DNA of 64,000 nt from Rickettsiales bacterium (GTDB lineage Bacteria > Pseudomonadota > Alphaproteobacteria > Rickettsiales > UBA1997), in assembly GCA_047404215.1 (NCBI GenBank), contig JBDOIV010000038.1:2220-66219 (forward strand), in the 5' to 3' direction. The notes beneath the pieces were generated by a model. That model ran no database searches and was not told where the DNA came from. It saw only the letters and a program-made list of their open reading frames with translations. Shown in pieces: positions 1,639 to 45,060 of this stretch; within the stretch, counting starts at the first letter, position 1, and every line of letters starts with the position of its first letter. The translations under genes and the position numbers were made by a program.

Positions 1639-3177
1639 ATGAGTAGATATGTAAAAAATGAAGCATTTGTTCCAGATGACGAAGAGCGTGATGCTACTAG
1701 TCCGGCTAAATCGGTATATTCAGGGTTTGGTTCTGGCGTCAGTACCTCTTCACGAAGAGAGTCGCTATCATCAGGCGCTTATGATGATTTTAGCTTTGCT
1801 GGTAGTTTCATTGATCACGGCACCCCTCCAAGCCCTATCGGCAGGGTCGATGATGATTCCGTGAGTTTTACTGGTAGCTTCTTTGATAATGGCACTCCAA
1901 GCCCTGTTGGTAGTTTCGTTGATAATGGTGATGCTAGTAGCATGGTTTTTACCGCTGAAGATCCGGGTCCCGGATTATTAAATAATTCTTTCGCACAGGC
2001 CACCGCCATGGCTAGGTTCAGTGACTTTATTTCTGATCAATCTGATTTAATAGAATATCTTGTGGCTGCTCACGATCTACTAACCCCAGAACTTATTACA
2101 GGCGGTAAATTGGATGGTGGCTTGTTATATCGAATATCTTCTAGCAATTTAAGCTTATCTCCTGAGGATTATAAATCGAGATCTATATTTCCAAAAACTG
2201 ATTTTAAAATCACAGACTCTCAAATATCGCAACTCTCACCTGTGGCAATGAAATTAGCACAAGAGGGTTTTGTCATTAAGGTTGGACCTTCCATTTCCAG
2301 GGTTTATGACGTGCAAGGTAACAGTCTATATGAGATGATACAGGGTCTAGATTTATTTGAAAATGAAGAGCAAATATATGATGTAGCTCGAATAGTTATC
2401 GATAATTTATTTAAATATATTCAAAAAGATAGTAGAATCGCCAGCAAATCACCAGTTGATTTAGAGCTTACGGATATAGAAAATCAGGCTTTAGTTAAAG
2501 AATATATTAAAATGGAAGAGGAGTTGGTGGCGGCTAGATCGGAAGTAAAAGCTTTGCAAGATCCGGCTTTAGTTGAGCAATCTATTCAAATAGAGGAGGG
2601 GTTGATGGCGGCTAGATCTGAAATCAAAGCTTTGCAAGATCAGGTTGGTGCATTGTTCGAATATCTAGATGGTCTCGACCCAGAAGTTTTGGATAGAGAT
2701 GCATCTCCTTCATCTTCTGATAGAGGTTCTCCAAAAAGTGAATCACCGGCATCGTCTATTAGTAGCAGTCCTCCTATTGATCAGGTAAGAAGTACCTCTG
2801 CTCTGAGTCTTGATTTGTCTGATGTCGCAAGAGTTATGAGTCCGCATCCACTACGAAGAAGCGTGACTCCTTCCCTAGGGGTAGCTGTAGATGATCACCA
2901 TTTTGCTACAATATCACCGCCAGCTTCGCCATTGCCATCATATCCAGCTTCGCCACCTACTATTGTTGATACGCTTGATACGCAGCAAAGAAGTATCACA
3001 CCAACAACCCCTGAGGGCGCCGGTACCTTTGATTTTGCTACTGTTTCTAGCCCCAGCTCTCCTGAAAGGCCAAGAAAGGCAATGCCAAGGCCAATACCGC
3101 AAATACCGCAAATAGCTACCCCTGGAAGGCCTTTAGTTGATACGGTAAATACCAGGGGTCAAGAAGTAACTCTTTAG
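1639..3177 (+). CDS. Hypothetical effector-like protein: disordered S/P-rich ends, folded middle, duplicated coiled-coil segment
   Basis: 512-aa ORF with its own promoter. Three GSFxDxG(T/D) motifs near the N-terminus, a 26-aa duplicated helix, and a Pro/Ser-rich C-terminus. No signal peptide. Confidence 0.7.
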   Translation: MSRYVKNEAFVPDDEERDATSPAKSVYSGFGSGVSTSSRRESLSSGAYDDFSFAGSFIDHGTPPSPIGRVDDDSVSFTGSFFDNGTPSPVGSFVDNGDASSMVFTAEDPGPGLLNNSFAQATAMARFSDFISDQSDLIEYLVAAHDLLTPELITGGKLDGGLLYRISSSNLSLSPEDYKSRSIFPKTDFKITDSQISQLSPVAMKLAQEGFVIKVGPSISRVYDVQGNSLYEMIQGLDLFENEEQIYDVARIVIDNLFKYIQKDSRIASKSPVDLELTDIENQALVKEYIKMEEELVAARSEVKALQDPALVEQSIQIEEGLMAARSEIKALQDQVGALFEYLDGLDPEVLDRDASPSSSDRGSPKSESPASSISSSPPIDQVRSTSALSLDLSDVARVMSPHPLRRSVTPSLGVAVDDHHFATISPPASPLPSYPASPPTIVDTLDTQQRSITPTTPEGAGTFDFATVSSPSSPERPRKAMPRPIPQIPQIATPGRPLVDTVNTRGQEVTL

Positions 3178-37418: not shown

Positions 37419-37457
37419 ATAGATTTTTCTTTATTTTCAGATTGCCATATATTAATC

Positions 37458-37485
37458 TTGACATTTAAAATGAGCGTTGTATAAT
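37458..37485 (+). promoter_or_regulatory. Copy of the conserved promoter cassette (TTGACA-16-TATAAT)
   Basis: ttgacatttaaaatgagcgttgtataat, located 272 nt upstream of the ankyrin gene and ahead of a second promoter. Confidence 0.45.
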
Positions 37486-37648
37486 AATATTAGCAGTTGA
37501 TATTATTTATATTTTCTGTTATCAGGCTTATAATTTGCCTACCCTGTGCTAAAATTCTTGCTTAAACATAAAAAAGATCCTTAGAAGAGTCTGGGTATTT
37601 TTGACACACTCTAGGCTGTCATTTAAAAAATCAAAGAATATTTTATGC

Positions 37649-37677
37649 TTGCAAGCAAACCGTAAATGTGATATAAT
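37649..37677 (+). promoter_or_regulatory. sigma70-type promoter with extended -10 for the ankyrin gene
   Basis: TTGCAA, 17-nt spacer, TGaTATAAT followed by taaatta. Confidence 0.55.
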
Positions 37678-37756
37678 TAAATTATAGATATAATTCAGGT
37701 GCAATAGTTACTATTTTTATAATTATTGGCCTTAATATTAATTAGTTTCTTAAATA

Positions 37757-40700
37757 ATGGGTAACTTGTTTTTAGAATGTAAATATGGTAATTTAAGAAG
37801 AGTGAAAGTATTATTAGAAAAAGGTGCAGATCCCAATCAAGCAAGAGCTAGTGATGGCGCAACTCCTTTATATCTCGCCGCTTTACAAGGTCACAATGAG
37901 GTTGTAATTACATTATTAGAAAAAGGTGCAGATCCTAATCTAGCAAGAACTGCTAATGGCGCAACTCCTTTATATCTCGCCGCTCAACTAGGTCACAATG
38001 AGGTCGTAACTTCATTATTAGAAAAAGGTGCAGATCCTAATCTAGCAAGAACTTCTAATGGCACAACTCCTTTACATATTGCTGCTAGTCTTGAGAGGTC
38101 AGATATTGTAACTTTATTATTGCAGGCAGGTGCTGATCCTCTTCTAAAAGACATGGAAGGTAACACTGCCGCTGGAATGATAATAAATGCGATAGAGAAT
38201 GATAAAAAGTTGATTGAGGGCATTAATGGCAATGATTTAAAAAAAGTGTCGGAGGCATTGCATAGTGGTGCCAAACCCAATCGGATAAAACATAGGGGCA
38301 AAACCCCCTTACTTATAGCTGTTCAAAATGGTAATTTAGAAATTGTAGCTTTATTACTAGAAAAAGGCGCTGATGTTAATCAAGGAAGCAATAAAGGTAA
38401 AACCCCTTTATATAAAGCTTCTGCAAATGGTCTCGGAAAAATAGTAGAAACATTGTTAGGTGCTGGAGCCAGTGTTGATAAAGTAAGAACGGTCGACGGC
38501 GAGACTTCTTTGATGATCGCTTCTTTCAATGGCCATGCAGATATTGTAAAAACATTATTAAAACAAGGCGCTAATCCTAACCAAAAGAGAGTTAGTGATG
38601 GAGTAACTCCTTTACAGTGGGCCGCCATTAAAGGTAACGCTGAAATTGCAAAAGAGTTATTGGGGGCAAATGACATAGATGTTAGTCAAGCAAGTAATCT
38701 GGGTAAAGCTCCTTTATATATGGCTTCTCAAGAGGGTAATTTAGAAATTGTATCTTTATTATTAGAAAAAGGCGCCGATGTTAGTCAAGCAAGCAGTAAA
38801 GGTAAAACTCCTTTATATATCGCTTCTCAAGAGGGTGATTTAGAAATTGTATCTTTATTATTAGAAAAAGGCGCCGATGTTAGTCAAGCAAGCAGTAAAG
38901 GTAAAACTCCTTTATATATCGCTTCTCAAGAGGGTGATTTAGAAATTGTAAAAGTATTGCTGGGGGCAGGTGGCATAGATGTTAATCAAGCAAGCAGTAA
39001 AGGTAAAACTCCTTTATATATCGCTTCTCAAGAGGGTAATTTAGAAATTGTATCTTTATTATTAGAAAAAGGCGCCGATGTTAATCAAGTAAGCAATAAA
39101 GGTAAAACTCCTTTATATATAGCTGCTGAAAATGGTAATTTAGAAACTTTATCTTTATTATTAGAAAAAGGCTCTGATATTAACCAAGCAAGCAATAAAG
39201 GTAAAACTCCTTTATATATAGCTGTTGAAAATGGTAATTTAGAAATTGTAGCTGCATTGTTAAATGCCGGGGCAGATATTGATCAAGCAAGAACTGATAA
39301 TGGCGCAACTCCTTTACATATGGCTGCTAGTCTTGAGAGTTCAGATATTGTAACTTTATTATTGCAGGCAGGTGCTGATCCTCTTCTAAAAGACATGGAA
39401 GGTAACGCTGCCGCTGCGATAGCCGGCAAATCTAGGCGCATAGATAATATGAGAATGATAATAAGTGCGATAGAAAATGATAAAAAGTTGATTGAGGGCG
39501 TTAATGGCAATGATTTAGAAAAAGTGTCGGAGGCATTGAATAGTGGTGCCAAACCCAATCGGATAAAACATGAGGGCAGAGCTCCTTTATGGATAGCTGC
39601 TCAAAGTGATAATTTAGAAATTGTATCTTTATTGCTAGAAAAAAGAGCTGATGTTAATCAAGCAAGCAATAAAGGTAAAACTCCTTTATATATAGCTGTT
39701 GAAAATAGTAATTTAGAAATTGTAAAAGTATTATTGGGGGCGGATGGCATAGATGTTAATCAAGTAGAGCGTGATGAGTTGATTAGCCCCTTACATATGG
39801 CCTCTTCCGAAGATAATTTAGAAATTGCAGAAGCATTGTTGGGGGCGGATCACATAGAAGTTGATCAGAGAGATTTTTTTGATACCACTCCTTTGATAAT
39901 CGCTGTGTACAATGGTTTTAAAGAAATCGTAACTGCATTGTTAAATGCTGGTGCAGATCCCAATCTAGCAGCGAGAATTGATAATGGCGTAACTCCTTTA
40001 TGGATAGCTGCTAAAAATGGCGATATAGATGTTATAAAAGAACTAATAGCAGCTAAAGCAGGCCTTGACAAAGCAAATAATAGCGGCATAACTCCTTTAT
40101 GGATAGCTGCTTCAGAAGGTCACAATGAGGTTGTAATTACATTATTAGAAAAAGGTGCAGATCCTAATCTAGCAAGAACTGCTAATGGCGCAACTCCTTT
40201 ACATATTGCTTCTCAAGAAGGTTACAATGAGGTCGTAACTTCATTGTTAGCAGCTAAAGCAGACCTAAATAAAGCAACTGACGAGGGTGCAACTCCTTTA
40301 TTTATCGCCGCTTTACAAGGTTACAGTGGCGTCGTAACTGCATTATTAGAAAAAGGTGTAGATCCTAATCTAGCAAGAACTGCTGATGGCGCAACTCCTT
40401 TACATATTGCTTCTCAAGAAGGTTACAATGAGGTCGTAACTTCATTATTAGCAGCTAAAGCAGACCTAAATAAAGCAACTGACGAAGGTGCAACTCCTTT
40501 ATTTTTCGCCGCTTTACAAGGTCACAATGAGGTTGTAATTACATTATTAGAAAAAGGTGCAGATCCTAATCTAGCAAGAACTGCTAATGGCGCAACTCCT
40601 TTACATATGGCTGCTAGTCTTGAGAGTTCAGATATTGTAACCTTATTATTGCAAGCAGGTGCTGATCCTCTTCTAAAAGACAGGGATGGTAACACTGCCG

Positions 40701-41629
40701 CTGTGATGGCTGGTAAATCTAGGCGCATAGATAATATGAGAATGATAATAAATGCGATAGAAAATGATAAAAAGTTGATTGAGGGCGTTAATAACAATGA
40801 TTTAAAAAAAGTGTCGGAGGCATTGGATATTGGTGCCAACCCCAATCGGATAAAACATGGGGGCAAAACCCCCTTACTTATAGCTGTTCAAAGTGATAAT
40901 TTAGAAATTGTAACTGCATTAATAGAAGCAGGTGCAGATCCCAATCAAGCAAGAACTGATAATGGATCAACCCCTTTGTTTATAGCTGCTCAAAGTGATA
41001 ATTTAGAAATTGTAACTGCATTATTAGCAGCTAAAGCAGATCTAAATAAAGCAAGAACTGATAATGGCGCAACTCCTTTACTTGCTACCGCTTATCAAGG
41101 TCATGCTGAGATTGCAACTGTATTAATGGAAGCAGGTGCAGATCCCAATCAAGCAACAACTAATGGTGGCGATACTGCTTTAATGGTGGCTGCGTATAAT
41201 GGCCACCTAGAGGTCGCAACTGCATTATTAGCATCTAAAGCAGACCTAAATAAAGCAAGAACTGATAATGGCGCAACTCCTTTATATGTAGCTGCTCAAA
41301 ATTGCCATATAGATGTTGTAAAAGAACTAATAGCAGCTAAAGCAGACCTAAATAAAGCAAGAACTGATACTAGATCAACTCCTTTACATATTGCTGCTAG
41401 TCTTGAGAGGTCAGATATTGTAACTTTATTATTGCAGAAGGGCGCTGATCCTTTTCTAAAAGATGATCAGGGGATTGCCGCTGCTATGATAGTTGCTAAT
41501 CGTGGAGGTCTTAGAGAAATTGAGCCACTACTGAATGCGAGGCTCCCAGGCTCTAGCGTTACAGATCCTATATTCGGTGCTCCTACTTGCAAAACCTCGC
41601 TAGACAAGCCTTTCGAGAAAGGGAATTGA
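37757..41629 (+). CDS. Giant ankyrin-repeat protein (about three dozen 33-aa ANK units in four arrays)
   Basis: 1290 aa made almost entirely of G.TPL..A...G..E(I/V)V..LL..GAD.N repeats, with three copies of a non-ANK linker module. Confidence 0.95.
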   Translation: MGNLFLECKYGNLRRVKVLLEKGADPNQARASDGATPLYLAALQGHNEVVITLLEKGADPNLARTANGATPLYLAAQLGHNEVVTSLLEKGADPNLARTSNGTTPLHIAASLERSDIVTLLLQAGADPLLKDMEGNTAAGMIINAIENDKKLIEGINGNDLKKVSEALHSGAKPNRIKHRGKTPLLIAVQNGNLEIVALLLEKGADVNQGSNKGKTPLYKASANGLGKIVETLLGAGASVDKVRTVDGETSLMIASFNGHADIVKTLLKQGANPNQKRVSDGVTPLQWAAIKGNAEIAKELLGANDIDVSQASNLGKAPLYMASQEGNLEIVSLLLEKGADVSQASSKGKTPLYIASQEGDLEIVSLLLEKGADVSQASSKGKTPLYIASQEGDLEIVKVLLGAGGIDVNQASSKGKTPLYIASQEGNLEIVSLLLEKGADVNQVSNKGKTPLYIAAENGNLETLSLLLEKGSDINQASNKGKTPLYIAVENGNLEIVAALLNAGADIDQARTDNGATPLHMAASLESSDIVTLLLQAGADPLLKDMEGNAAAAIAGKSRRIDNMRMIISAIENDKKLIEGVNGNDLEKVSEALNSGAKPNRIKHEGRAPLWIAAQSDNLEIVSLLLEKRADVNQASNKGKTPLYIAVENSNLEIVKVLLGADGIDVNQVERDELISPLHMASSEDNLEIAEALLGADHIEVDQRDFFDTTPLIIAVYNGFKEIVTALLNAGADPNLAARIDNGVTPLWIAAKNGDIDVIKELIAAKAGLDKANNSGITPLWIAASEGHNEVVITLLEKGADPNLARTANGATPLHIASQEGYNEVVTSLLAAKADLNKATDEGATPLFIAALQGYSGVVTALLEKGVDPNLARTADGATPLHIASQEGYNEVVTSLLAAKADLNKATDEGATPLFFAALQGHNEVVITLLEKGADPNLARTANGATPLHMAASLESSDIVTLLLQAGADPLLKDRDGNTAAVMAGKSRRIDNMRMIINAIENDKKLIEGVNNNDLKKVSEALDIGANPNRIKHGGKTPLLIAVQSDNLEIVTALIEAGADPNQARTDNGSTPLFIAAQSDNLEIVTALLAAKADLNKARTDNGATPLLATAYQGHAEIATVLMEAGADPNQATTNGGDTALMVAAYNGHLEVATALLASKADLNKARTDNGATPLYVAAQNCHIDVVKELIAAKADLNKARTDTRSTPLHIAASLERSDIVTLLLQKGADPFLKDDQGIAAAMIVANRGGLREIEPLLNARLPGSSVTDPIFGAPTCKTSLDKPFEKGN
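38739..38950 (+). repeat. Perfect tandem duplication with a 99-bp (one ANK unit) period
   Basis: 38761-38859 and 38860-38950 are identical over at least 91 nt, and identity extends about 22 nt to the left. Confidence 0.9.
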
Positions 41630-41746
41630 TTAAAGCAGGCTTACACAAAGACATAGAAGTGGCAACTAAGGTGCAAATAAAGTTCTTGGCAAATTAAAAG
41701 ATTACTGTAAGAGTCTTGACTTCATTTAAATAAAGATTAGCAAAAT

Positions 41747-41775
41747 TTGACAAAAAATTCTTTATATGCTATAAT
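41747..41775 (+). promoter_or_regulatory. sigma70-type promoter with extended -10 for argC
   Basis: TTGACA, 17-nt spacer, TGcTATAAT. Confidence 0.5.
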
Positions 41776-41820
41776 TTTAATATAGATAATAAGATTTACC
41801 AAAATAACAATATATAAGCT

Positions 41821-42868
41821 ATGGCTAAATTAAAAGTAGCGGTTCTTGGGGCTTCAGGCTATACTGGCGCTGAACTAATTAGGTTACTGCTCAATCACAA
41901 TGAAGTAGAAATCTCGGCTTTGGTCGCTAATTCAAATGCTGGGCAAAATATTGCTGATATTTATAACCATTTCACGCATTTTGATTTACCGCGGCTAAAA
42001 AAAAGTGGATCAGGTTGATTTTGCTAAAATCGATGTCGCATTCTGCTGCTTGCCACATACCACTTCGCAGGAAATAATTGCGCAAATTATTGCCTCGAAA
42101 GCTAATCCTGAGCTGAAAATCATTGATTTATCGGCTGATTTTAGGCTTGATGATGTTGAAAATTATCAAAAATGGTATGGTAACGAGCATAAAGCTAAGG
42201 ATATCCAGTCAAGCGCGGTTTACGGCCTTAGCGAGATTAATAAAGCTAAGATTAAGAATTCCAACTTGGTAGCATGCCCTGGCTGCTATCCAACATCAGC
42301 TCTTTTGCCTTTATTACCATTGCTTGAATATAAGTTAATTAAGTCAGAAAATATCATCATTGATTCAAAATCAGGTGTTAGCGGTGCAGGGCGCGCTTCG
42401 AAAGTAGCTAATTTATTCGCTGAAGTTAATGAGTCATGCAAAGCTTATGGCATTGGTACTCATCGTCATATTGGCGAAATTGAGCAAGAATTGTCAAAAG
42501 TTGCTGATGGCGATATCGAAATTGACTTTACCCCACATTTATTACCGATAAATCGTGGTATTATCTCAACTATTTACGTCGATATTGACGACAAATTTAC
42601 TATTGATGACCTGAAAAACTGTCTAAATACTAGATATCAGGATGAGTATTTCGTAACCATTAGTGATAATGTCCAGATTAGCGATGTTAAGGCAACAAAT
42701 TTTTGCCATATTAGTGTCAATAAGGCTAGGTCAGGCAATAAAGCGGTGATAGTTAGTGTTATTGATAATTTGTGCAAAGGAGCTTCTGGGCAAGCGGTAC
42801 AGAATATGAATATTATATTTGGGTTTGATGAGAGGCTTGGGTTGACCAATGCGCCATTATTTCCTTAA
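41821..42868 (+). pseudogene. argC: N-acetyl-gamma-glutamyl-phosphate reductase, frameshifted in an A8 run
   Basis: ORFs 41821..42018 ([12 protein letters not shown]) and 42005..42868 (PGCYPT) together make a full ArgC. Removing one A from 41997-42004 gives ...[24 protein letters not shown]. Confidence 0.85.
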
Positions 42869-42914: not shown

Positions 42915-43063
42915 GTCACCAGCGAGGAGTCTTGGCGACGTGACAATCTAATGGATCGCCGCGCTGACGCTCGCGATGACAAAGGAAGGGGATTGCGATA
43001 ACAAAAGAAGAGGTAATCCAACTACAGCGTCATTAAAGAGGAGCGGTAGCGACGCGGCAATCT
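42915..43063. repeat. Three clustered copies (direct, inverted, direct) of the GC-rich interspersed repeat
   Basis: 42915-42949 gtcaccagcgaggagtcttggcgacgtgacaatct; 42954-42980, reverse complement gtcatcgcgagcgtcagcgcggcgatc; 43029-43063 gtcattaaagaggagcggtagcgacgcggcaatct. Confidence 0.65.
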
Positions 43064-43086: not shown

Positions 43087-44424
43087 ATGACTACAATTTT
43101 CGCCCCAATAACATCTTTAAGTGCTTCTAGCGTGATTTTACTGAGGATATCTGGTGAAAAAGCTATCGATTGCCTTAAAAATCTTGACTTTAAAGCTGAC
43201 CTCACCCCTAGCCAAGTGCAATTTGGTAATATCTATGATCAAAATGGTGAAATTCTTGATCAGGTGGTTGTTACTTATTTTAAAGCTCCATATAGCTTCA
43301 CTGGTGAAGATGTTGTTGAAATATCGCTGCACGGTTCTAGTTATATCTATAACCAAGTAAGTGCAATATTGCTAAAAGTTGATGATGTTAAATTAGCTCA
43401 AGCTGGTGAGTTTTCAAAAAGAGCCTTCCTCAATAATAAATTTGACCTAGTGCAAGCTGAAGCGATCGTTGATCTGGTCAATTGCCAGACTGATCTGCAG
43501 CATAAGCAAGCGCTTAAGCAGCTTCGCGGTAATCTAGGTAGAATTTACGATGATTGGCGAGGGCAAATCATCAATATTTTAGCTCTAATTGAAAGTTTTA
43601 TTGATTTTCCCGACGAGGATATTCCGCAAGATCTAACCAATCAGGTTCGGGCTAATGTTCTGTCGCTAACTGATCAAATTAAATCACATCTTGACGATAA
43701 TAAAAAGGGTCAAAAAGTCCATGATGGCTTAAAAATGGCGATAATTGGCGCCCCCAATGTTGGTAAATCATCTTTGTTAAATTTCTTAGCGCAAAGCGAA
43801 GTGGCAATTGTCTCTGATATTGCTGGCACCACTAGGGATATTATCGATGTCAGCTTGGATATTGCTGGCGTACCCGTTAAAATATCGGACACCGCTGGCA
43901 TTAGAGCTAGTAAAGATGTAATTGAGCAAGAAGGAATCAAAAGAGCAATCAATAAAGCTCAAGATTGCGATATAATTATCATTTTATCGGATTTGGCTCA
44001 TCAAAATGATGAAATTAGCAATTATATCAATGAAAAAATATCTCAAATCGAAGATTTATCTGAAAAATCAGTAATTCGATTATTTAACAAACTTGATCTT
44101 AAAGATAATGCTGATAAAGAAGACTGCGATCTCGAAATTTCGTTAAAAGAACAGCAAAACCTTGATCAGCTACTAGCTTTAATCGAAGTAAAAGTACAGG
44201 AGTTAATACCAGATCTCAATGAAACTTTAATCACCAAGCAAAGATATCGCGATAATTTGACTGAGGCCTTGGAATATCTTCAAGAATTTAATTTAGATAA
44301 AAATATTGAGCTTGCTGGTGAAGATCTTCGCATAGCAGCTACTGCCATTGGTAAAATCACCGGTAAAATCGAAGTTGACAATATTCTAGATGTAATTTTC
44401 TCAAAATTTTGTATTGGTAAGTGA
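43087..44424 (+). CDS. mnmE: tRNA modification GTPase MnmE
   Basis: G-domain motifs GAPNVGKSSLLN and DTAGIR, with the C-terminal FCIGK. Confidence 0.95.
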   Translation: MTTIFAPITSLSASSVILLRISGEKAIDCLKNLDFKADLTPSQVQFGNIYDQNGEILDQVVVTYFKAPYSFTGEDVVEISLHGSSYIYNQVSAILLKVDDVKLAQAGEFSKRAFLNNKFDLVQAEAIVDLVNCQTDLQHKQALKQLRGNLGRIYDDWRGQIINILALIESFIDFPDEDIPQDLTNQVRANVLSLTDQIKSHLDDNKKGQKVHDGLKMAIIGAPNVGKSSLLNFLAQSEVAIVSDIAGTTRDIIDVSLDIAGVPVKISDTAGIRASKDVIEQEGIKRAINKAQDCDIIIILSDLAHQNDEISNYINEKISQIEDLSEKSVIRLFNKLDLKDNADKEDCDLEISLKEQQNLDQLLALIEVKVQELIPDLNETLITKQRYRDNLTEALEYLQEFNLDKNIELAGEDLRIAATAIGKITGKIEVDNILDVIFSKFCIGK

Positions 44425-44597
44425 CAAAATATTTTATTTACAAAAAATTATTTTGTCATCCTGAGGTTTTAGAATTTCCAACTGAAGTCGTAAAAAATAT
44501 AATTGATCCTAAGTCGCTACAAATCCATTAACTAGCAACATCTTGTATTGTATTATTTTAAGGTTCTTCTATGGTAGAATAAGGTATATTAGGTTTA

Positions 44598-44647
44598 TCG
44601 GCGGGCACCGCGGGTGAGCGTGGGACGGTCGACCATGCGGCCGCGAG
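44598..44647. repeat. GC-rich palindrome cluster in an AT-rich spacer
   Basis: cggcgggcaccgcgggtgagcgtgggacggtcgaccatgcggccgcgag contains ccgcgg, ggtcgacc and gcggccgc. Confidence 0.7.
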
Positions 44648-44792
44648 AAAAAATTACTGTCATTCAAAAGCGTTAGAAGCTATTTTTACTTTGCCATTCA
44701 GAGGCTTAAGAGCTCTTTTAGAGTTAGTTGTCGATGAAATCTATTTAAGATAGAATATTTTGTTTTGTGCTGCTAACTATTTCGTCATTATG

Positions 44793-44901
44793 TCAGATTT
44801 GTTCCATCAAAATGATGAAATCAGTAGTTATATAAATGAAAAAATTGCTAAAATTGAAAATTTAAGTGAGAAATCGGTACTTCGATTATTTAATAAGTTT
44901 G
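44793..44901 (+). pseudogene. Diverged duplicate of an internal mnmE segment (matches 43987-44095)
   Basis: SDLFHQNDEISSYINEKIAKIENLSEKSVLRLFNKF versus SDLAHQNDEISNYINEKISQIEDLSEKSVIRLFNKL. Most nucleotides match by eye over about 108 nt. Confidence 0.8.
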
Positions 44902-44980
44902 GTAATATCTTATATTACTTTTTGTCAATATTTTTTCAGAATATTTATTGTATCAGAATATAGATATTATTTGCATAAAG

Positions 44981-45022
44981 ATAATAGTATGTTGTATTTA
45001 TGTAAATACAGCATACTATTAT
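44981..45022. repeat. 42-bp near-perfect palindrome (20-bp arms, one mismatch) 39 nt upstream of the 45061 ATG
   Basis: ataatagtatgttgtattta tg taaatacagcatactattat. Confidence 0.85.
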
Positions 45023-45060
45023 AAACAGTAAGAAAGTAATTATAGTAATCTGAAAAATTA

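Follow-up and report, generated by a model that had tools for sequence, protein, structure and literature searches.

A 117-nt fragment of mnmE that lies between the intact gene and a large ankyrin-repeat gene, in the 64-kb stretch of Rickettsiales DNA analysed here (the window), is probably a non-functional relic of a distinct mnmE allele, which would have been captured through illegitimate recombination within a ~5-kb insertion and afterwards trimmed by deletion. As a scar it belongs to a known kind, of which it adds a further example, and neither a new mechanism nor a new functional element was found.

The fragment (F) occupies 44785-44901 on the forward strand and copies mnmE positions 43979-44095, each letter lying 806 nt beyond its counterpart. 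Over the 117 nt there are 23 mismatches and not a single indel (~80% identity), and the copy is in frame over 38 codons. It starts 360 nt past the mnmE stop codon, in the same orientation as mnmE, and the mnmE frame stays open throughout. Searches within the window recovered the match by blastn (112 nt, 81.25%, E 3e-25) and by tblastn (42 aa, 71%, E 3e-14), and all other matches to mnmE in the 64 kb had E >= 0.07. The preliminary description of this DNA had reported a repeat of about 108 nt, copied from an internal mnmE segment and lying 3' of the intact gene; the repeat was recovered at a slightly greater length, both peptides quoted for it are correct with the frame preserved, and the ORF drawn around the copy (44760-44963, 204 nt) exists and spans F. 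The similarity is not a chance resemblance between stretches of AT-rich DNA, as the blastn E-value shows.

The resident mnmE (43087-44424, + strand, 445 aa) is an intact ORF with Pfam matches to TrmE_N, MMR_HSR1 (residues 216-335) and MnmE_helical. By alignment and Pfam, the segment matched by F (43979-44095, + strand) comprises codons 299-336, the final third of the G domain as far as the NKxD motif. F covers 38 of the 445 codons, at the end of MMR_HSR1. It lacks the N-terminal domain together with the greater part of the G domain (residues 1-298), and also the C-terminal part ending CIGK (residues 337-445). No significant further mnmE-like sequence was found beside F by Smith-Waterman alignment against shuffles (P=0.14 for the DNA to its right, P=0.84 for that to its left), and the edges of F are abrupt on both sides. 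In a sensitive self-search, F was the sole gene fragment in the 27 spacers of the 64-kb window. It is present in three independent assemblies (L001, L002 and L037), and is therefore not an assembly artefact.

The window sequence is identical to Logan contig L001, and L002 is the same strain from another sample. A search with MnmE gave uncultured Rickettsiales as the nearest relatives, and the 90% cluster of the protein had four members (the window allele, L037, L043 and L044). The alleles are named here A (the window and L037, which is strain 2) and B (L043 and L044, the NCBI MAG alleles). MnmE of the window is 94% identical at the amino acid level to L037, L043 and L044, and 65-70% identical to MnmE of the next lineages (L038, L003, L039/L040 and L041/L042). 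The best protein matches of F were residues 299-335 of A/B-clade MnmE, at 81-84% identity.

The interval between mnmE and polA was compared across six related lineages (L003, L038, L039, L041, L043 and L044). In all of them the gene order is (tsf-pyrH-yebC-)argC-mnmE followed directly by convergent polA, with an mnmE-polA spacer of 141 nt in L003, 178 nt in L038, 149 nt in L039, 314 nt in L041 and 23 nt in L043 and L044, and both F and the ankyrin gene are absent from all six. Since mnmE and polA are adjacent in these relatives, 44425-49496, which holds the spacer, F and the 1344-aa ankyrin gene (~5 kb), is an insertion; it is absent from the two nearest strains (MnmE 94%) and from four more distant lineages. 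By blastn, the window is collinear with L043 and L044 save for window-specific 37432-41819, 44421-49495 and ~52296-54200. The earlier suggestion that 45061-49095 is an insertion, to be judged by comparing the mnmE-polA interval in relatives, is thus borne out, six lineages having the two genes adjacent. The recombination junction that had been placed at 44425-45060 holds as a junction, by synteny, but not in its limits, with the insert running from ~44484 (or 44425) to 49496.

Read from left to right, the interval begins with the ancestral 3' flank of mnmE (44425-44483, + strand), the first ~60 nt after the mnmE stop codon matching the mnmE 3' flank of L038 (36 nt, 86%, E 5e-5) and containing an inverted repeat that forms a hairpin with 17-nt arms (44422-44458). 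For the spacer left of F (44484-44784), related loci, plasmids and Rfam families yielded no homologue, and the spacer 44484-45060 as a whole gave no match to plasmids in distant mode. A 'palindrome cluster' had been described within it at 44598-44647; the stretch is indeed GC-rich (44588-44652), but it folds no better than shuffled sequence (z=-0.43) and is not repeated elsewhere in the window, its exact copies being confined to contigs of the same strain. A 12-mer common to this stretch and the L041 spacer (P=0.025 against mononucleotide shuffles) was judged not robust. F itself (44785-44901, + strand) follows, identified by blast, tree and site patterns as 38 in-frame codons of an mnmE allele that falls outside all known resident alleles. 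Next comes the upstream region of the ankyrin gene (44902-45060, + strand), in which the palindrome reported ahead of that gene is real, a 20-nt inverted repeat at 44981-45022; two L037 substitutions fall in this repeat, and both break pairs. The ankyrin-repeat gene (45061-49095, + strand, 1344 aa) is lineage-specific and matches ankyrin families only in Pfam. The central region of its protein is an orphan, its 600 aa matching ankyrin repeats only, and no homologue of this region was found in metagenome contigs. The right junction (49096-49496, 401 nt) consists of a part common to L037 (49096-49169) and a part unrelated to L037 (49170-49496). It is followed by polA (49497-52286, - strand), which by Pfam and synteny is the ancestral convergent neighbour of mnmE.

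F was then compared with the resident alleles at the nucleotide level. Over the 117 nt, A differs from B at 14 positions and from F at 23; between F and B there are 26-28 differences. With the majority of the outgroups as reference, 10 sites in the 38 codons joined A with B against F and the outgroups, none joined A with F, and two joined B with F; with single outgroups the first pattern was found at 7 to 12 sites. The chance of a 10:0:2 skew under a trichotomy is P about 0.002, where the polarisation relied on four AT-rich outgroup lineages at 36-46% nucleotide divergence, a distance at which third-position homoplasy is possible. In the NJ bootstrap, A and B grouped without F in 99.8% of replicates, (A,B,F) was separated from the outgroups in 100%, and (A,F) was recovered in 0%. 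By this placement F is sister to a crown group made up of the known resident alleles, those of insertion-free strains among them, and the comparison with mnmE alleles that the preliminary description had proposed puts the fragment outside the A+B clade. No allele closer to F than A and B was found among the best 120 MnmE hits or in the 90% cluster. A degenerate DNA pattern covering the F and A versions had 0 hits in JGI metagenomes, and an F-specific 34-mer had 0 hits in viral contigs. A protein search with a 45-aa peptide of the fragment gave no candidates past its word filter.

The branch leading to F is short. Changes unique to F number 3 in 114 nt, or at most ~11 if all unresolved sites are charged to F, against roughly 30-40 expected on this branch under neutrality. 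The A side has accumulated ~10-12 changes since the split, ~5 of them at 20.5 synonymous sites. In a relative-rate comparison, 5 changes fell on the F side and 10 on the A side, where a 77:23 split is expected if F is neutral (P=4e-4, or P=0.02 when omega is leniently set to 0.5). F is also nearer to each of the four outgroups than the resident segment is.

Tree position and short own branch together suggest that F evolved mostly as part of a working mnmE, in a sister lineage not yet sampled, and was reduced to a fragment only recently. This import is read from the position and branch length of F on 114-117 sites. Of the two origins offered earlier, an old duplication and an imported allele, the second is the one favoured by the tree position and the few changes that F has of its own, and the first is disfavoured. 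F would have come with, or during turnover of, accessory DNA, perhaps in one event with the ankyrin gene. DNA of the sister lineage would have been joined by homology-facilitated illegitimate recombination (HFIR), with at least one illegitimate end in the donor mnmE near codon 299, and donor codons 337-445 would then have been deleted. At least two steps (capture, and deletion of 337-445) are needed, because no mnmE-like sequence flanks F, and the deletional bias of Rickettsia fits a later trimming (PMC2374718, PMC1779305). Since then the insertion-bearing block has passed from strain to strain by homologous recombination, with mnmE as one anchor.

Such a spread is visible in the comparison of the window strain with L037, which are near-identical over a block at 43699-49169, as delimited by differences, pS and a Fisher test. 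In the 5' part of mnmE (43173-43698) the two strains differ at 72 positions (~12%), and the flanks, polA included, have a dS of about 0.46-0.47. Inside the block, the rest of mnmE has 3 differences, with no synonymous one in codons 208-445, and pS is about 0.004 in the ankyrin gene past codon 60; the density of differences changes at 43698/43699 (Fisher P=6e-25). On the right, identity stops abruptly at 49169/49170, beyond which 49170-49496 of the window (327 nt, moderately GC-rich) is unrelated to 7537-7658 of L037 (122 nt), up to the polA stop, and no gene fragments were detectable in the right junctions of either strain. Since 43699-49169 is near-identical within flanks that differ by ~12%, the block was exchanged recently: the insertion-bearing block moved between strains, with a homologous crossover in mnmE and a non-homologous right edge. 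The pattern is the one known from HFIR (PMC3240628) and from the displacement arrays attributed to it (PMC5361080). One-sided homology is seen for the window-L037 block; at F, both edges are abrupt and there is no identifiable anchor.

An unlikely alternative is the mirror image of the favoured history, in which F would be a piece of the old resident mnmE. An incoming A/B allele, bringing part of its downstream flank, would have recombined homologously upstream and illegitimately near codon 299, and the old 3' part would have been pushed downstream and trimmed later, in analogy to rhs C-terminal displacement and T6SS effector arrays. Such a displacement explains the sharp left edge, the position of F outside A+B and its short branch, and its mechanism has been described for other loci (PMC5361080); one-sided-homology events do occur at the mnmE-polA locus, and the window is close to B left of the junction (MnmE 94%, ArgC 92.5%) and far from it on the right (PolA 69%, LactB 50%). 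The PolA discordance (31% aa) is, however, much deeper than the depth of F (about 1.8 x the A-B distance), and it is B's PolA, not that of the window, that is the outlier relative to the outgroups, which would allow a separate event in B. Displacement would also require that at least 10 kb, from tsf to mnmE, had been imported, and it would still require the later loss of codons 337-445.

An old partial duplication of the resident mnmE in situ, with neutral decay and deletions leaving a single block, is quite improbable. The distance of F from its parent gene (360 nt) and their common orientation suit a duplication, and pseudogenes that decay by deletion to short remnants are well documented in Rickettsia (PMC2374718, PMC1779305). 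F branches before the A/B split, however, and the insertion is found in A strains only, which means that a duplication needs a loss in B down to the 23-nt spacer. A duplicate would have been neutral at all 114 sites, yet F has only the 3-11 changes given above against ~10-12 on the A side (P=4e-4), and it is not nested with A (the A-with-F pattern at 0 of 12 sites, (A,F) bootstrap 0%). No co-duplicated flanks of F were detectable, and the lack of any indel or stop in 38 codons has a probability of 0.23-0.36 under fully neutral divergence. Between F and the resident segment pS is 0.56 and pN 0.12 (dN/dS 0.13), values for which an all-neutral divergence is rejected (P about 0.001). A count-based simulation with half of the substitutions neutral did not reject the in-situ duplicate (P=0.1-0.5), so dN/dS alone is weak. 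Taking these comparisons together with the tree, F as a drifting in-situ duplicate of the present mnmE is disfavoured.

It is very unlikely that F has been exapted, whether as part of a small protein (57 aa from ATG 44790, or 67 aa from TTG 44760), which would combine an MnmE-derived N-terminus with a hydrophobic tail, or as an RNA leader or regulator, which would act on the ankyrin gene or mnmE. The ORF frame is open, ATG 44790 coincides with the conserved codon for Met300, there is a weak promoter-like site (TTGTCG-17-TAGAAT) at 44728-44756, the longest exact match between F and the mnmE copy is 17 nt, and the short F branch could reflect constraint in situ. Against this, the ORF 44760-44963 had no Pfam hit, no Rfam covariance model matched at gathering thresholds in the window, leaving no known structured RNA as a candidate, and no gene was called at F in three public assemblies. 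In E-value mode, a search of 44380-45100 returned chance-level miRNA hits (E 0.37-0.84). The two strain variants compared differ at 2 positions in F and at 4 in the whole 204-nt ORF, with at least 2 of the ORF changes non-synonymous, a rate no lower than in neighbouring DNA (the block around it differs by about 1%). The 38 codons make up only part of a GTPase domain, and the element occurs in one lineage only. That these codons were recruited either into a new small protein or into an RNA coupling the ankyrin effector gene to mnmE through their 80% similarity is most improbable; if true, it would mean that in an obligate intracellular bacterium a recombination scar had given birth to a gene or been exapted for regulation. 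F is an ordinary recombination scar, and nothing supports a function for it.

Displaced gene fragments of comparable kind, left by HFIR (PMC3240628), are known from rhs C-terminal displacement and Vibrio cholerae T6SS effector-immunity arrays (PMC5361080, PMC2935791). In the rhs and T6SS loci one end recombines by homology through a conserved gene and the other is joined illegitimately, as would have happened at the F locus on the favoured reading. In both cases pieces of a different allele lie downstream of the intact gene, beside new accessory genes, and are phylogenetically distinct from the resident. The displaced pieces of those systems are 3' ends, often with intact and still useful immunity genes, whereas F comes from the interior of a housekeeping GTPase gene, 38 codons with neither gene end and no plausible activity, and its event is reconstructed rather than observed. 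F is also like the pseudogene remnants of Rickettsia and other reduced genomes (PMC2374718, PMC1779305, PMC3164680), in being a short relic within a long AT-rich Rickettsiales spacer shaped by deletional erosion. In the classical Rickettsia cases the decayed remnant is the genome's only copy of a gene that relatives have kept intact; F has an intact copy 360 nt away and, unlike them, would have come from another lineage and be young on its own branch. Like the pseudogenes of failed or partial horizontal transfer (PMC522871), F is a truncated, non-functional, apparently foreign copy amid recently acquired DNA. It differs from these in that its donor would be a close sister lineage rather than a distant taxon, and the transferred piece xenologous to a gene that the recipient already has.

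Duplications at att sites arise from the 3' end of the target gene and leave direct repeats at both ends of the island, which carries an integrase. They are like F in that a partial copy of a conserved gene stands beside an inserted accessory segment. An att-type duplication was rejected for F, which is internal to mnmE (codons 299-336), has no second copy at 49096-49496 or elsewhere, and is not accompanied by an integrase, the only long ORF of the insert matching ankyrin families only when scanned with Pfam. A dispersed repeat, RPE-like or other, was likewise rejected, with only two copies in the 64-kb window, one of which is mnmE itself.

On the favoured reading, the relic of a captured allele, F is a molecular fossil, indicating that DNA from a sister lineage absent from ~15 billion public proteins reached an uncultured Rickettsiales lineage. 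The exchange would have taken place at the site where a large ankyrin-repeat gene, with a putative role in host interaction, was inserted between two housekeeping genes, and the 5.5-kb block that is near-identical across strains with ~12%-different flanks points the same way as F. Together, F and the block suggest ongoing recombination and accessory-gene traffic among intracellular bacteria that are often assumed to be genetically isolated. The F-type mnmE provides a sequence tag for a donor search, and may serve as a marker of inter-lineage recombination.

Several further features of the window were recorded. The first 60 codons of the ankyrin gene (45061-45240) differ by ~13% between the window strain and L037 (pS 0.13, pN 0.12, one codon indel), and the remaining 3.85 kb of the 1344-aa gene by 0.3%; either a hypervariable basic N-terminus or a separate conversion patch would account for this. 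A second large ankyrin gene occupies 37432-41819, between yebC and argC, which are adjacent in the B strains and outgroups; its 1290-aa protein consists nearly entirely of ankyrin repeats (about 30).

Divergence between the window and B changes across the junction. On the left, amino acid identity is 95% for Tsf, 97% for PyrH, 92.5% for ArgC and 94% for MnmE, with a dS of 0.7-0.8; on the right it is 69% for PolA, with a dS of about 1.6, and 50% for LactB. At 69%, PolA of the window and B are no closer than the window is to the outgroup lineages (73%). Beyond PolA residue 300 (49497-51400) the B allele is the most divergent from everything, and over the first 200-300 residues a weak sisterhood of A and B remains. 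A link between this discordance and F is unproven, since its depth far exceeds that of F and B's PolA is the outlier, and the discordance is treated here as a separate event that may have struck the same hotspot.

The B strains and outgroups have an empty slot between polA and the metallo-beta-lactamase gene, which is filled by a 444-aa orphan ORF in the window (52592-53926) and by a 427-aa ORF in L037 (10853-12136). The two ORFs have only 27% identity over 93 aa, within flanks that are 88-92% identical. A motif, D-x-D-x-[FY]-R-T-P-x-V-E, is common to the 444-aa protein and the orphan centre of the 1344-aa ankyrin protein (pairwise E 4e-4).

In argC (41821-42868), an A8 homopolymer at 41997-42004 splits the gene into ORFs of 65 aa and 287 aa. 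L002 has A7 at this site, which leaves the gene intact at 348 aa, and over 13 kb the two sequences differ nowhere else; the A8 is either a sequencing error or a slippage-prone tract. The argC-mnmE spacer contains a 45-nt GC-rich piece (42939-42983) that is 95.6% identical to L043, where the next spacer hit is 77% identical and the flanking genes 86-88%. In appearance this spacer resembles Rickettsia palindromic elements.

A motif of 34-36 nt recurs in four spacers at 83-94% identity (1284-1319 and 37457-37492 on the + strand, 54824-54857 and 59705-59740 on the - strand). On the proper strand it reads CTTGACATTGTAAATGAGCGTTGTATAATAAT, a near-consensus TTGACA-16-TATAAT promoter in which the spacer is conserved as well, and it points to the 1290-aa ankyrin gene, the lactamase gene and the ORF at 1639-3177.
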